Assembly (NCBI GenBank): GCA_963814275.1
Contig: CAWFCE010000001.1
Location: 67,307-131,306 of the forward strand
DNA: 64,000 nucleotides
Direction of reading: 5' to 3'
Origin: Candidatus Parcubacteria bacterium
GTDB taxonomy: Bacteria; Patescibacteriota; Patescibacteriia; Patescibacteriales; UBA12075
Below, piece by piece: positions 24,137-32,793 of this stretch (position 1 is the stretch's first letter; each line of letters starts with the position of its first letter). Under the pieces are notes generated by a model. The model was not told where the DNA came from, did no database searches, and saw only the letters and a program-made list of their open reading frames with translations. The position numbers were made by a program, and so were the translations under genes.

Positions 24137-24221
24137 GATTTGAAAATTTGAAATTAGAAATTTGAAATTAGAAATTCGGACATAAGCAAATAAACGAATT
24201 TCTAATTTCCAGTTTCCAATT
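24137..24221. repeat. Short-period AT-rich hairpin of the GAAATTAGAAAT family
   Basis: ggatttgaaaatttgaaattagaaatttgaaattagaaattcg pairs with cgaatttctaatttccagtttccaatt. Related words occur at 35285-35430 and 37027-37195. Confidence 0.65.
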
Positions 24222-25323
24222 ACCGCGTAATCACATACTCCATATTCCCCAAATTCCTTACCAATCCTTTCATTTCCATCATTGTCAATGTTGCATTAAT
24301 AGCAGACGGGGTTAGTTTTGTCAAGCGTATGAGGTCGTCTATGTGGCGCGGATCGCGCGCCAGGTGCTTGAGGAGAAGCGCCTCTTCCTCAGTGGCGGGA
24401 ATCAGCTTTTTGTTATCGATATGCTGGCAGGTCGTTTTTACGTCGAGCGTTTCCAGGATATCCATAATTTCCAACACAGCCATCGCGCCTTGGCGGATCA
24501 GCCGGTTTGTTCCTTTGGAAGTAGGTGAATAGATGCTGCCGGGAACGGCAAAAACTTCGCGGTTTTGCTCCAGGGCGTATCGGGCGGTAATCAGGGCGCC
24601 TGATCGTTCACCGGCTTCGACCACCAAAGTCCCCAGGGCCAGTCCGGCGATAATACGGTTCCGCTGGGGGAAGTTGGACCGCCAGGGAGGCGTATCAAGG
24701 GGGAATTCGGAAATTACCGCCCCTTGGGCGGAAATTATTTTTTGCGCCAAATATCGGTTCGACGATGGATACAGGGAATTATTGTTAACGCCGGTTCCGA
24801 GCACGGCAACAGTACGGCCGCCGGCCTTGATGCACGCGGCATGGGCTAGCGTATCCGTACCCAGGGCCAGGCCGCTTACGACCGTAAGGCTCTCCCGGGC
24901 CAGGCCAACGGCCATCTGTTCGGCTACCTGCCGGCCATAGGCGCTTACCATTCTCGTGCCGACTACGGCGACTGCCAGATCATCGCCATCCTCCATGATG
25001 CCTTTGGTATATAGTAATTGAGGGGGATTATAGATTTCCTTGAGGAGTGCCGGATAGCGTTCGTCGTGCAGGCCAATCACGTTTATTTCTTCCTGACCGA
25101 GCCGTTCCATGATCCGATCGGGAGTGATATCCGGCCTGAAGGCAACGAATTCGTCCGCCACTTTTGTCTCGATGCCCGCCGCAGCCAGATTTTTCGGGCC
25201 GGCATTAAAGGCCTCCTTGGCGCCGGGGAAATATTTCAGCAAAGCATTCAGGCGCCGCGGGCCGAATTTGGGAAAATGTGAAAGAGCAATCTCGTACTTG
25301 AGGTCGAGGTTGGAAAATCTCAT
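24220..25323 (-). CDS. dprA: DNA-processing protein DprA (Smf)
   Basis: 367 aa. It carries the Rossmann-like core VVSGLALGTDTLAHAACIKAGGRTVAVLGTGVN...PSSNRYLAQKI and a C-terminal winged-helix-like tail. Confidence 0.9.
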   Translation of the reverse strand: MRFSNLDLKYEIALSHFPKFGPRRLNALLKYFPGAKEAFNAGPKNLAAAGIETKVADEFVAFRPDITPDRIMERLGQEEINVIGLHDERYPALLKEIYNPPQLLYTKGIMEDGDDLAVAVVGTRMVSAYGRQVAEQMAVGLARESLTVVSGLALGTDTLAHAACIKAGGRTVAVLGTGVNNNSLYPSSNRYLAQKIISAQGAVISEFPLDTPPWRSNFPQRNRIIAGLALGTLVVEAGERSGALITARYALEQNREVFAVPGSIYSPTSKGTNRLIRQGAMAVLEIMDILETLDVKTTCQHIDNKKLIPATEEEALLLKHLARDPRHIDDLIRLTKLTPSAINATLTMMEMKGLVRNLGNMEYVITR

Positions 25324-25528: not shown

Positions 25529-25557
25529 TTGACATTACCGTGAATTTATGCTAACAT
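25529..25557 (+). promoter_or_regulatory. Candidate sigma70-type promoter with an extended -10
   Basis: TTGACA (25529-25534), a 17-nt spacer ending in TGc, then TAACAT (25552-25557). No plus-strand CDS lies downstream. Confidence 0.45.
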
Positions 25558-25564
25558 AATATGT

Positions 25565-25971
25565 TATTTAAAAAGCTGAATTTATAATCGGTTTTCGTGT
25601 CTGGCAGCCGGATTTCTGCTTGTCCTACGTGCGTATGTACAAACACTTGTCCTCCTTGGGTGTTTGCTATGTATAGTCGCGGACGGACAAGCAGTAATGC
25701 GTCGGACAGCCATATTATCAGTTGATAAATGTCGGATGAGAACAAAATAAGACGGTTGCAAAAAATCATAATTATGTTCTATAATAGCATATATCGCGTT
25801 TTTTATACAGACTTTATCGCCAAACGCATCCAGACCATTACCTAGGAGTGGGCTGAAGCGATCTCCCCTCCTTGATCGCGGAAGCCTTAATAGGGGGTTT
25901 TCCCCCTGCTTCTAGGTATTGGTCTGGATAGGAAAAACATCGAAAAAACCGCCCCGATCGGGGCGGTTTTT
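25565..25971 (+). ncRNA. Candidate structured non-coding RNA of unknown class; the strand is tentative
   Basis: It is bounded by the promoter above and a strong terminator. It contains an extended stem (CUGCUUGUCC/GGACAAGCAG plus UGGC/GCCA and CCGG/UCGG) and a Y-shaped element closed by a 21-bp stem (25828-25848 with 25909-25929). Two hairpin loops carry CCUCCUUG. Confidence 0.35.
25949..25971. terminator. Bidirectional rho-independent terminator
   Basis: The stem ccgcccc-gat-cggggcgg has an A6 run upstream and a T5 run downstream. It lies 13 nt beyond the pth stop on the minus strand. Confidence 0.8.
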
Positions 25972-25983
25972 CTATTATTATTT

Positions 25984-26535
25984 TTATAGGTTTTGTTCCT
26001 GGACCATCCGGGAAATAGCGCTTTTTATGGTTTCAAGCTCGCCAGCGGTGAATTTGGCCAGCACATAGTTCCGGGCCGGCATCCGGTCGGGTTTATCGCC
26101 CATGATGCCGATACGCCAGCGGCGGAAGTTCTTGGTTTTAAGATGGGCGATGATCGACTCGACGCCGCGGTGGCCCGCTGAACGCGAATCGACCGATAAT
26201 TTGTATTTTCCCAATGCGATATCGATATCGTCATTGATTACCGTCAAGGTCGGGGACAAGTCGGAATTCCTGGCGGTCAAAAGGGCGAATTTTTTCGGTA
26301 ATAATTTATAGTAATTCATGGCCAGGGCGGCCGCCACGCCGGAATTGTTCATAAAAGTCATTGGTTTAAGCAGGACGATATCATCGCCTTTCGCGATTTC
26401 GGATTTCAATTTTTTATTGGCCTCCCAGGATAATCCGTATTTTTCCGCCAAAGCATCAATCGCCATAAAACCGGCATTATGGCGGGTCTTTTCGTATTCT
26501 TTCCCCGGATTGCCCAAACCGACAATTATTTTCAT
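25984..26535 (-). CDS. pth: Peptidyl-tRNA hydrolase
   Basis: 183 aa starting MKIIVGLGNPGKEYEKTRHNAGF, which is the canonical N-terminus. Confidence 0.95.
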   Translation of the reverse strand: MKIIVGLGNPGKEYEKTRHNAGFMAIDALAEKYGLSWEANKKLKSEIAKGDDIVLLKPMTFMNNSGVAAALAMNYYKLLPKKFALLTARNSDLSPTLTVINDDIDIALGKYKLSVDSRSAGHRGVESIIAHLKTKNFRRWRIGIMGDKPDRMPARNYVLAKFTAGELETIKSAISRMVQEQNL

Positions 26536-26637: not shown

Positions 26638-28127
26638 TTATTGAATGTTTTCCGTGGTATGCTTGCCGTGTATCTTTCGTTCCTTTTCGACATAGATCTT
26701 TATCGGGGTGCCCTCGAAGCCGAATTTTTCCCGCAAGCGGTTCTCGATAAAGCGAAGATACGAGTCAATGAGCGAATCGCGCGGTCCCACCCGGACCATG
26801 AAAGCCGGCGGGTTGACTCCGGTCTGCTTGATCTCATAGATGTGCGGCCGTTTATTTCCCGCCCGGGCCGGGGGAGAATGGCGTTTGATCAGCTGGCCCA
26901 GGAATTTGCCCAAAGAGCTGTCGCTGATCCGGTTCTCCCGGGCTGATGCGATTTCCAGCACCAGGGTAAACAATTTGTTGACCTTCGCGCCGGTCAATGC
27001 GGAAACGAATTGGATGGGAGTCCAGGTAGCGAAGGGAAAGTGGGAATAGATAAGCTCCGTATAGTGTTTCGTATTCCGGTCGGGGACAAGATCCCATTTG
27101 TTGGCGACGATCGCCAGGCCGACCCCGCGGGATACTACCGCCTCGAGCAGGCGCGTTTCCTGCCGAGTGATCGGTTCGTTTATGTCTATCACCAGGATGG
27201 CGATATCGGCCCGTTTGACCGCGGCCAGGGATTTCAGGATGCTGAATTTTTCCAGGGTTTCCCGGTAGGACCGGCGGCGGGCGGATTGCTGGCCGCGCCG
27301 GCTGATGCCGGCGGTATCGACCAGCGTAATCCTTCGGCCCTGGTAGGACAATTCGGTATCTATCGGTTCGCGGGTGGTGTGGGGAACCGGCGAAACGATC
27401 ACGCGGTCTTCTCCCAGGAGCGCGTTGACCAGGCTTGATTTGCCGACATTCGGCTTGCCGATGATCGATATGCGGATAGGGCCCGCCGGCTCCGTATCAT
27501 CTTTTTTGTCTTTTTCCGGAATGTCGGCCGGAAGACGCGTTGCTTTCCTCCCCCTTTTTTTGGCAGCTTGCTGACGAGCAGATCCAGGAGGTCGCCGGTA
27601 CCGGAGCCGTTGGCCGCGGATAGCGGCATCGGTTCGCCCAGCCCCAAGCGATTGAAATCCGCCGTTTGCAGCCTGAGTGATGGCTTGTCGGCCTTATTTG
27701 CCGCCAGAATAACGCGTTTTTCCGTTTGAGGTATGATCTTTTTGAGGTATAGGGCCAGTTCTTTGTCTATCGGCAGGGTCCCGGATTTGACATCGACCAG
27801 GAACAAAATCAAATCGGCCCGCTCGAGTAATCGGCGGGCTTGTTTTTGCGCCTGGGCGTCAATATCGACGGCTGTTCGATTCTGCCGCGGCCGGTGAAGG
27901 TCGATGATGCCGCCGGTATCGGCCAAATTCATGTCCCGGCCGTTCCAGGAAATGCGCCTGATACTGTAGTCGCGGGTCGTGCCGGGCGCGGCTGAAGTCA
28001 ACGCCTGCCGGCTTTCCGTGAGGCAGTTGAACAAAGTCGATTTGCCGACATTGGTCCGGCCGAAGATGACAACCAAGGGAAGTTTTTTTTCAGAATTAGA
28101 ATTAGTCATATCATATGCATATAACAC
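26638..28127 (-). CDS. der: Ribosome-biogenesis GTPase Der (EngA), interrupted by a 1-nt frameshift between GTPase domains 1 and 2
   Basis: ORF 27399..28127 gives GD1 (GRTNVGKSTLFN, DTGG, NKAD). The G1 motif of GD2 (IRISIIGKPNVGKSSLVNALLGEDRVIVSPVP) is in the frame of ORF 26638..27402, upstream of its annotated start. The frames switch at the A7G5 tract (plus-strand C5T7, 27550-27561). A KH-like C-terminal domain is present. Confidence 0.85.
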
Positions 28128-32547: not shown

Positions 32548-32793
32548 GTGTCTACCGTGGTTGAATTCAAAAGAAAAAAAGGCGAAAGTTTCGAAGCGTT
32601 TTTACGCCGCTTCAATAAGACTCTGCTGCGCAGCCGCAAGCTCAATGAAGTGCGCCGCCGGCGCTACATCCAGCCGAAGAAAAATAAGAACAAGCAGAAA
32701 GAATATGCGTTGATCGTAAAAGAAACTCGCGAAAAAAACGAATATCTGCGCAAGATCGGCAAACTTAAGGATGAGCCGAAAGGGCGCTGGTAA
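32548..32793 (+). CDS. rpsU: 30S ribosomal protein S21
   Basis: 81 aa and basic. ESFEAFLRRFNKTLLRSRKLNEVRRRRYIQPKKNKNKQK matches the S21 pattern. AGGAAGG lies upstream of the GTG start. Confidence 0.8.
   Translation: MSTVVEFKRKKGESFEAFLRRFNKTLLRSRKLNEVRRRRYIQPKKNKNKQKEYALIVKETREKNEYLRKIGKLKDEPKGRW

Follow-up and report, generated by a model that had tools for sequence, protein, structure and literature searches.

The 64,000-nt stretch of a Candidatus Parcubacteria bacterium genome analyzed here (contig CAWFCE010000001.1 of assembly GCA_963814275.1; hereafter the window) carries, in the gap between dprA and pth, what is almost certainly a real, conserved, structured RNA gene on the plus strand. 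It represents a new RNA family that spans several classes of Patescibacteria and is defined by three covariance models. The locus holds a long irregular hairpin (H1) followed by a three-way-junction RNA (Y RNA), and in both of them a loop displays part of the anti-Shine-Dalgarno (anti-SD) tail of the organism's own 16S rRNA. Judged from these sequences, its function points at Shine-Dalgarno (SD)-dependent translation initiation.

The RNA folded well past chance expectation: the plus strand of 25560-25975 reached -160 kcal/mol (z = -9.0), a value equaled by 0 of 100 shuffles. A preliminary description of the locus had drawn an extended H1 stem with an enclosed hairpin, as well as a three-way junction with two inner hairpins, and both were recovered by sequence and by fold. 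The H1 apical stem CAAACAC (25640-25646)/GUGUUUG (25660-25666) encloses UUGUCCUCCUUGG, and the apical loop shows UCCUCCUUG, with CCUCCUUG at 25651-25658. The Y RNA is closed by a 21-bp stem with a single U-U mismatch (25828-25848 with 25909-25929), from which arm 1 (25851-25886) presents the loop UCCCCUCCUU at 25864-25873, including CCCUCCUU at 25866-25873, and arm 2 forms the hairpin AGGGGG-UUUU-CCCCCU (25892-25907). Across the family, Y measured ~117-150 nt, with a closing helix of 21-27 bp, an arm-1 apical loop of 9-12 nt, and a plain second hairpin. A GGYGAA...(A)GUAGCC frame recurred at the base of arm 1, which may resemble a loop-E/sarcin-ricin internal loop. Outside the order, Y stood alone directly behind its promoter, was about 135-150 nt long with a larger second arm, and had on its 3' side either a terminator or a U tract after the closing helix.

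We then assessed this fold by covariation. In Y alignments of 14 sequences (A7) and 23 sequences (A10), both of them fitted to a covariance model, which favors structure, 93.8% and 92.8% of cells were paired and compensatory changes occurred in 31/36 and 33/36 pairs, respectively. The corresponding H1 alignment (A8, 26 sequences) had 92.8% of cells paired and compensatory changes in 20/22 pairs. For each of the three, 0 of 500 shuffles did as well, and the best slid controls gave 51% (A7), 50% (A10), and 50% (A8). An independent analysis of 16 sequences with MAFFT and RNAalifold found compensatory changes in 29 of 35 pairs. Two alignments with reverse-strand or H1 rows (A5 and A9) were left out of counts and models. 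The fold covaried strongly across the order, the class, and other classes.

The preliminary description had treated the locus as a single unit of ~400 nt. A second plus-strand promoter-like site, which adds to that description, lies directly before Y, and the locus therefore comprises two adjacent plus-strand modules rather than one unit. Equivalents of this second site were carried by relatives (TTGCGC-17-TATAAT or TTGACA-17-TAACAT), and TTGACA-17-TGCTAAnnT also preceded H1 in related loci. Of 37 order loci, 31 had H1; in the other six, Y follows its promoter directly. In four loci (L021, L024, L045, and L049), H1 abuts Y and the linker is too short for a promoter, so that H1 and Y must be co-transcribed there. 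The covariance models built for Y also matched H1 weakly, at 34 bits in L033, and second same-strand matches upstream of Y were seen in 11 genomes; this makes H1 a probable diverged duplicate of Y, with the loop motif kept. Y, which has a near-consensus sigma-70 promoter of its own, is the ancient core, alone in most lineages, and H1 is an accessory module of the order. In two order loci, insertions of about 110-180 nt separate H1 from Y, a G+C-rich hairpin with another CCCUCC in L030 and a long palindrome in L041, showing that the linker tolerates extra elements.

To follow the RNA beyond close relatives, we used sequence searches and covariance models. A BLAST-level search recovered Y (77-79% identity) from the pth-dprA gap of two genomes that belong to another genus, and both keep the complete layout of first promoter (P1), H1, second promoter (P2), and Y. 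Models were built from 3 sequences (R1), 14 sequences (R2), and 23 sequences, 7 of them from other orders (R3); the window Y RNA scored 133.8, 110, and 89.9 bits, respectively. R1 matched 16 of 25 genomes of the family sample (13/18 genera), and R2 matched 83 of 151 genomes of the order sample (50/83 genera, 19/26 families). With R3, matches rose to 93 of 151 in the order sample and extended to 57 of 151 in the class sample (55/147 outside the order) and to 15 of 151 in the phylum sample, 14 of these from other classes. Two families of the order were without the RNA by R3 (f5, 0/11; f12, one weak match in 18). In a separate set anchored on dprA (36 loci, 35 searched), Y occurred in five, i.e., the closest relatives (L071-L073 and L075) and a weak match (L077), and the Magasanik-, Falkow-, and Uhrbacteria-labeled loci of that set had no hairpin with a CCUCC loop upstream of dprA.

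There was usually one locus per genome, and a few genomes had tandem or double copies (G171, G175, and G238). These two-copy cases come from other orders (L118 in G171, L066 in G238, and G175:C8:9987-11401), the copies lying in tandem or 1.2 kb apart; in L066 and L118, the second copy is shorter and its CCUCC motifs are arranged differently. Copy number also bears on the idea of a mobile repeat, a palindrome of the miniature inverted-repeat transposable element (MITE) or repetitive extragenic palindromic (REP) type with no function of its own. The 21-bp inverted arms do look like terminal inverted repeats, but the window organism has a single copy, with other matches in its genome limited to the terminator, the site is syntenically constant across classes, and the arms covary instead of being identical. 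We therefore give this idea practically no weight.

The preliminary description had called the strand uncertain. G-U/A-C counts and a conserved promoter settled it as the plus strand. When read on the plus strand, 470 of 501 Y cells formed canonical pairs, compared to 413 on the minus strand; the corresponding values were 531 vs. 476 of 572 cells for H1 and 1036 vs. 920 of 1134 cells for class/phylum Y. Cells with G-U pairs outnumbered their A-C counterparts 64:7 in Y, 65:10 in H1, and 139:23 in class/phylum Y, so that a reading on the minus strand would disrupt 10-11% of pairs. In addition, 26 of 30 class/phylum loci carried a TTGAC-N16-18-TAnnnT promoter, often with an extended TG, on the strand of the RNA and no more than 90 nt upstream of it. 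A functional minus strand, acting as a pth-dprA intergenic or untranslated-region element, a CsrB-like sponge, or a small open reading frame (ORF), is thus highly improbable. It is true that this strand also folds well (-131 kcal/mol, z = -5.5), that its loops would display A(A)GGAGG, and that it holds a 72-aa ORF (25551-25769) and the extended -10 motif TGCTATTAT, which is present as previously described but at 25781-25789, one base from the position given before. However, promoters are conserved on the plus strand, no ORF of at least 60 aa was common to the homologous gaps of G020 and G022, which also disposes of a small ORF, and CsrA was not found. A CsrB/RsmZ-type sponge was rejected on the same counts, GGA appearing in the loops only on the minus strand.

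We next compared the RNA with known families. Rfam 15 at gathering score gave 0 matches in the window, and near the locus at E up to 10 it gave only terminator-centered noise, all far below gathering score. On 20 related loci it returned three tRNAs and otherwise no match, and on two class-level representatives at E up to 5 only noise. ARAGORN found nothing, and full-text literature searches turned up no description of this RNA. The RNA is thus not a member of any described family, although it is akin in kind to RNAs that carry anti-SD sequences in hairpin loops. This bears out the earlier suggestion of an unclassified structured RNA, together with the statement that no tmRNA, RNase P, signal recognition particle (SRP), or 6S identity could be recognized.

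Individual candidates were rejected as follows. RNase P RNA, tmRNA, and 5S rRNA are located elsewhere in the genome, the genuine 5S gene at G000:C2:362765-362879 (102.7 bits), and the window had no 5S match (RF00001). SRP RNA (RF00169, RF01854) had no match in the organism's own genome or in 25 family genomes. The 6S model (RF00013) scored 12.8 bits on the terminator only, and the fold is a three-way junction, not rod-like with a central bubble. The cuckoo model (RF02552) reached 17.9 bits, again on the terminator only; an anti-SD-like loop motif on stems that vary by compensatory change was found as in cuckoo RNAs, but the loops show UCCUCCUUG and CCCUCCUU rather than CCUCCUCCC and the architecture is another one. 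OLE RNA had no Rfam match and measures ~600 nt, vs. 117-150 nt here. An RNA of the bacterial Y RNA/Ro60 ribonucleoprotein (RNP) type would go with a TROVE gene (PF05731), for which the genome yielded 0 candidates, and an Hfq-dependent small RNA (sRNA) with Hfq, which was not found in the genome.

A divergent housekeeping RNA (SRP RNA, 6S, 5S, or bacterial Y RNA) that the Rfam models missed nevertheless has some appeal, since the SRP and 6S slots look empty in this genome and size, copy number, and promoter strength fit. Yet 5S rRNA, RNase P RNA, and tmRNA are accounted for; the SRP proteins were undetected too (PF02978, PF00448, and a motif scan), so SRP RNA is not to be expected; there is no GNRA-capped helix-8-like element; and 6S and Ro60 fail as described above. 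We regard such a divergent relative as very unlikely.

The SRP searches are worth recording for their own sake. In the organism's genome (96% complete, two contigs), RF00169, RF01854, the Ffh M domain (PF02978), and the SRP54-type GTPase (PF00448) were all not found, and a six-frame GTPase-motif scan of the genome was negative as well. None of the 25 family genomes matched RF00169. For PF00448, matches in 41 relatives were at P-loop level only, and the phylum sample gave 0 of 151 at E <= 1e-10. To our knowledge, Ffh and FtsY are near-universal, and the missing SRP parts point either to a remarkable loss or to components that the searches could not see.

The genomic address of the RNA was likewise conserved, as counted by tblastn in relatives with the RNA oriented as the plus strand. 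Downstream of the RNA, convergent pth was found in 34/37 order loci, 14/20 class loci, and 11/11 other-class loci, one of which (L129) is doubtful, falling inside the pth match; overall, the count was 59 of 68, and pth is the neighbor that the RNA gene keeps most consistently. Divergent dprA lay upstream in 37/37 order, 13/20 class, and 4/11 other-class loci, and 7 of 13 loci without dprA had an mfd-like upstream gene. The RNA gene therefore lies in the gap behind pth, on the other strand, whichever gene follows. The distance from the RNA 3' end to the pth stop was about 17-300 nt.

Such an address invites a reading as a cis-antisense element or insulator, in which the RNA collides with or pairs to read-through pth-dprA/mfd transcripts. 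Convergent pth in most loci, a dprA or mfd-like gene running in the same direction upstream, the shared bidirectional terminator, and the short distance to the pth stop all agree with it. However, a role of this kind needs no conserved fold and no invariant loop, yet 31-33 of 36 Y pairs covary and the loop is fixed where the stems drift, and in the window the RNA overlaps neither neighboring coding region. It would explain the address, not the covarying fold, and we consider it unlikely.

Two observations on the surroundings of individual loci may be added. At the class-level locus L064, smpB and infC (the N-terminal domain of initiation factor 3, IF3) lie upstream of Y, both translation factors like pth. 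Further, the RNA is followed on its own strand by tRNA genes at two loci: Rfam identified three in L117, and a tRNA-like sequence was recognized by eye in L026; in these two loci, the RNA may be co-transcribed with tRNAs.

We turned next to the loops. The organism's own 16S rRNA ends in GGAUCACCUCCUUUCU, with GAUCACCUCCUUUCU as the quoted tail, and both the H1 and the Y loop have CCUCCUU in common with it, so that the likeness to the 16S 3' tail noted earlier is an identity with the host's own sequence. The motif CCCUCC-U was invariant in 16 of 16 family sequences, and all 32 aligned class/phylum sequences contained CCUCCU, 29 of them as the longer CCCUCCU. This loop is the sole near-invariant sequence of the RNA, and the motif falls in the predicted apical loop.

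We also analyzed how genes of the organism use SD sequences. The genome is SD-poor: a 5-mer SD preceded the first start codon of 3.4-4.4% of ORFs of at least 150 aa, compared to a background of 1.4%, a fraction that is underestimated where first start codons are wrong. The full AAGGAGG stood 3-10 nt before 88 ORFs of at least 50 aa. We examined 24 proteins behind AAGGAGG in three clusters; they comprised small proteins without a Pfam match, purB, a purC/purE fusion, and a glucoamylase, and no coherent regulon or prophage signal was found among them. AAGGAGG-led ORFs cluster, e.g., at G000:C2:252-258 kb, C2:504-518 kb, and C1:294-307 kb, many of them small and without a Pfam match, and housekeeping genes in these regions (sigma-70, a class II tRNA synthetase, and a GH3 enzyme) were without an SD.

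For comparison among genomes, SD density was taken as the excess of AAGGAGG-N4-9-ATG over a reversed control, per Mb, in 151 order genomes. RNA-positive genomes had a median of 25.6-27.8, compared to 15.7 in RNA-negative genomes. At the level of families, the RNA-positive fraction correlated with SD density (rho 0.52, p 0.006, 26 families; rho 0.79, p 0.0008, 14 families with at least three genomes), p-values that overstate the support because families are related.

Our best guess is that the RNA is an sRNA that pairs with ribosome-binding sites, a reading supported indirectly by the invariant loop, its 16S identity, and the family-level SD correlation. More specifically, we put at roughly 0.4 the probability that the anti-SD mimic pairs with the SD regions of the minority of mRNAs that are SD-led and thereby tunes their initiation. 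In such a mechanism, the loops would act as copies of seven bases (CCUCCUU) of the 16S tail. The RNA would offer one mimic (Y) or two (H1 and Y) for pairing with AAGGAGG-type mRNA regions, and pairing would occlude or tune initiation of the full-SD gene minority. The rigid helical scaffold would serve loop display, and the whole would amount to a trans-acting, Hfq-independent RNA that occludes ribosome-binding sites. It speaks for this mechanism that the loop motif was kept when the H1 module arose.

Several points weigh against pairing with mRNAs. A 7-nt seed fits every strong SD and gives no specificity, and topA, dprA, pth, and lytR are without an SD, so that the neighbors of the RNA offer no target. 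The correlation is weakened not only by the relatedness of families; it also vanishes within them (24 vs. 33 per Mb in f1, and 40 vs. 50 in f16), and f3 carries the RNA (14/19 genomes) despite low SD density, with f13 a similar case. Moreover, it would be equally expected if the RNA binds a protein that recognizes the anti-SD. When the two loops were run against 237 GGAGG-led starts with RNAduplex, spurious G-rich ORFs came out on top and the loops did no better than the 16S tail; this crude scan ranked nothing meaningful. Finally, conservation of base-pairing sRNAs does not as a rule reach beyond the genus or family, and the multi-class span, the long helix, the three-way junction, and the GGYGAA...AGUAGCC frame are more typical of protein-bound housekeeping RNAs. 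A regulator of initiation of the housekeeping type, peculiar to Patescibacteria and acting phylum-wide, in which the anti-SD copy of an abundant RNA either competes with ribosomes for the few, mostly accessory mRNAs with a full AAGGAGG or titrates a factor that handles the anti-SD, is conceivable, and we would advance it only tentatively.

The chief rival is a protein decoy or RNP, in which the loop would mimic the 16S 3' tail to titrate or deliver bS21, an Era- or KH-type factor, S1, IF3, or an RNase. The phylum-wide occurrence, usually in single copy, the near-consensus promoters, the rigid scaffold, and the internal-loop frame at the base of arm 1 suit such a role, and the SD-density correlation is equally compatible with it. 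The window itself contains a weak bS21-like match at ~32575-32709 on the plus strand (PF01165, E 7e-4, below cut-off), 6-7 kb from the RNA gene, and many order genomes have an equivalent on the contig of the RNA gene, at a distance of 6-10 kb, in what is a conserved gene block. PF01165 matches were generally near threshold, with 11 of 151 over the cut-off. Precedent comes from OLE RNA, whose CCUCCU mimic is bound by bS21 and loses this binding when mutated (PMC12054373). However, the OLE mimic is paired with an SD-like strand, and the loop here is open. Detection of bS21, weak and near threshold as it is, was not tied to the RNA: f8 had the RNA in 9/9 genomes and S21 in 1/9, and f10 the RNA in 5/18 and S21 in 17/18. 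Era reads GAUCA, which the loops do not contain, and pth alone among protein genes is tightly linked. We hold a decoy to be a doubtful but serious alternative to mRNA pairing.

Among known systems, the closest in kind are the cuckoo RNAs of Alphaproteobacteria (RSs0680/CcsR, SmelC397/C14, and RcsR1; RF02552), whose anti-SD-like hairpin loops are proposed to occlude ribosome-binding sites (PMC4615179). They share with the present RNA one conserved anti-SD-like loop motif, stems that drift by compensatory change, and a conserved neighborhood. Their motif CCUCCUCCC sits in two to four simple adjacent hairpins of 24-50 nt, and the RNAs are multi-copy, Hfq-bound, and poorly conserved past the genus. 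In contrast, CCCUCCU(U) is here part of a three-way-junction RNA with a 21-27-bp closing helix, joined by a long hairpin of 120 nt, and this RNA is usually single-copy, kept across classes, and found in a genome where Hfq was not detected. Among the C-rich-loop sRNAs of Firmicutes, Staphylococcus aureus RNAIII likewise exposes C-rich (UCCC) hairpin loops, which start pairing with the SD region of its targets, as summarized in PMC4615179; it uses a short UCCC seed against defined virulence mRNAs in one genus, unlike the phylum-wide 7-nt anti-SD copy seen here. OLE RNA, which is large, is, as here, a conserved structured noncoding RNA with an exact copy of the host 16S anti-SD (CCUCCU), and this P6 mimic is bound by the ribosomal protein bS21 and needed for function (PMC12054373). 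The OLE mimic pairs to an SD-like strand and belongs to a membrane-associated RNP of ~600 nt in Bacillota, whereas the copy described here forms the unpaired apical loop of an RNA of 120-150 nt, which neither matches the Rfam OLE model nor co-varies with bS21 detection. By analogy, 6S RNA is also of interest. This abundant, usually single-copy, and widely conserved RNA is a global RNA polymerase decoy that mimics an open promoter and binds the holoenzyme; the common trait would be mimicry of a ligand of the core expression machinery, with the 16S tail mimicked here instead.

The coordinates of the locus are given in Table 1. The dprA-pth gap measures 660 nt, unusually long for a genome of 1.73 Mb. 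Both the promoter that the preliminary description had placed at the start of the locus and the bidirectional terminator at its end were found; the latter has a G+C-rich stem of 12-13 bp, seven of them G-C, which closes a loop of 4 nt, and there are T runs on either strand. No terminator was found by the terminator scan in the linker after H1.

Table 1. Features of the dprA-pth region, in positions of the window
Feature	Position	Strand	Basis
dprA, divergent upstream neighbor	24220..25323	-	367-aa ORF
Promoter P1, TTGACA-17-TG-c-TAACAT (extended -10), drives H1	25529-25557	+	10/12 matches, TG present
H1, long irregular hairpin	~25598-25716	+	fold and covariation; ~120 nt
Linker from H1 to second promoter	25717..25755	+	sequence; terminator scan
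Promoter-like site P2, TTGCAA-18-TATAAT, directly before Y RNA	25756-25785	+	10/12 matches
Y RNA core	25818..25934	+	covariance-model match; ~117 nt
Intrinsic terminator, bidirectional, common to RNA (+) and pth (-)	25944-25971	both	
pth (peptidyl-tRNA hydrolase), convergent downstream neighbor	25984..26535	-	183-aa ORF

Beyond pth, der (engA; 26638-28127, minus strand) is split by a frameshift in the linker that joins its two GTPase domains. The shift lies within about 27400-27520, in an A/G-rich run, and the second P-loop (GKPNVGKSSLVNALLGEDR) resumes in a different frame. The split could stem from an assembly error, mark a pseudogene, or represent a programmed shift.

Patescibacteria (the candidate phyla radiation, CPR) account for much of bacterial diversity; most of them have not been cultivated, and hardly any regulatory RNAs have been described from them. 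The RNA described here adds a new family with a clear consensus, in which a closing helix bears one arm with CCCUCCU in its loop and one further hairpin, and its fixed address beside pth and its span over several classes make it annotatable in thousands of genomes and traceable in metatranscriptomes. Its sole invariant sequence is a copy of the site at which the ribosome docks mRNA, which points to translation initiation, and the genomes that carry it use SD pairing for a minority of genes only. Should the RNA compete for SD sequences or control access to them, it would give minimal cells a simple global switch that acts on a special subset of genes and would be, after OLE, the second natural example of an RNA with a copy of the anti-SD tail. 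It could then be viewed as a "6S RNA of translation," setting the expression of SD-led genes, possibly newly acquired or foreign ones, in cells whose core genes start without an SD, and its fixed tail-to-tail position would link the dose of the RNA to pth, the gene for peptidyl-tRNA recycling.

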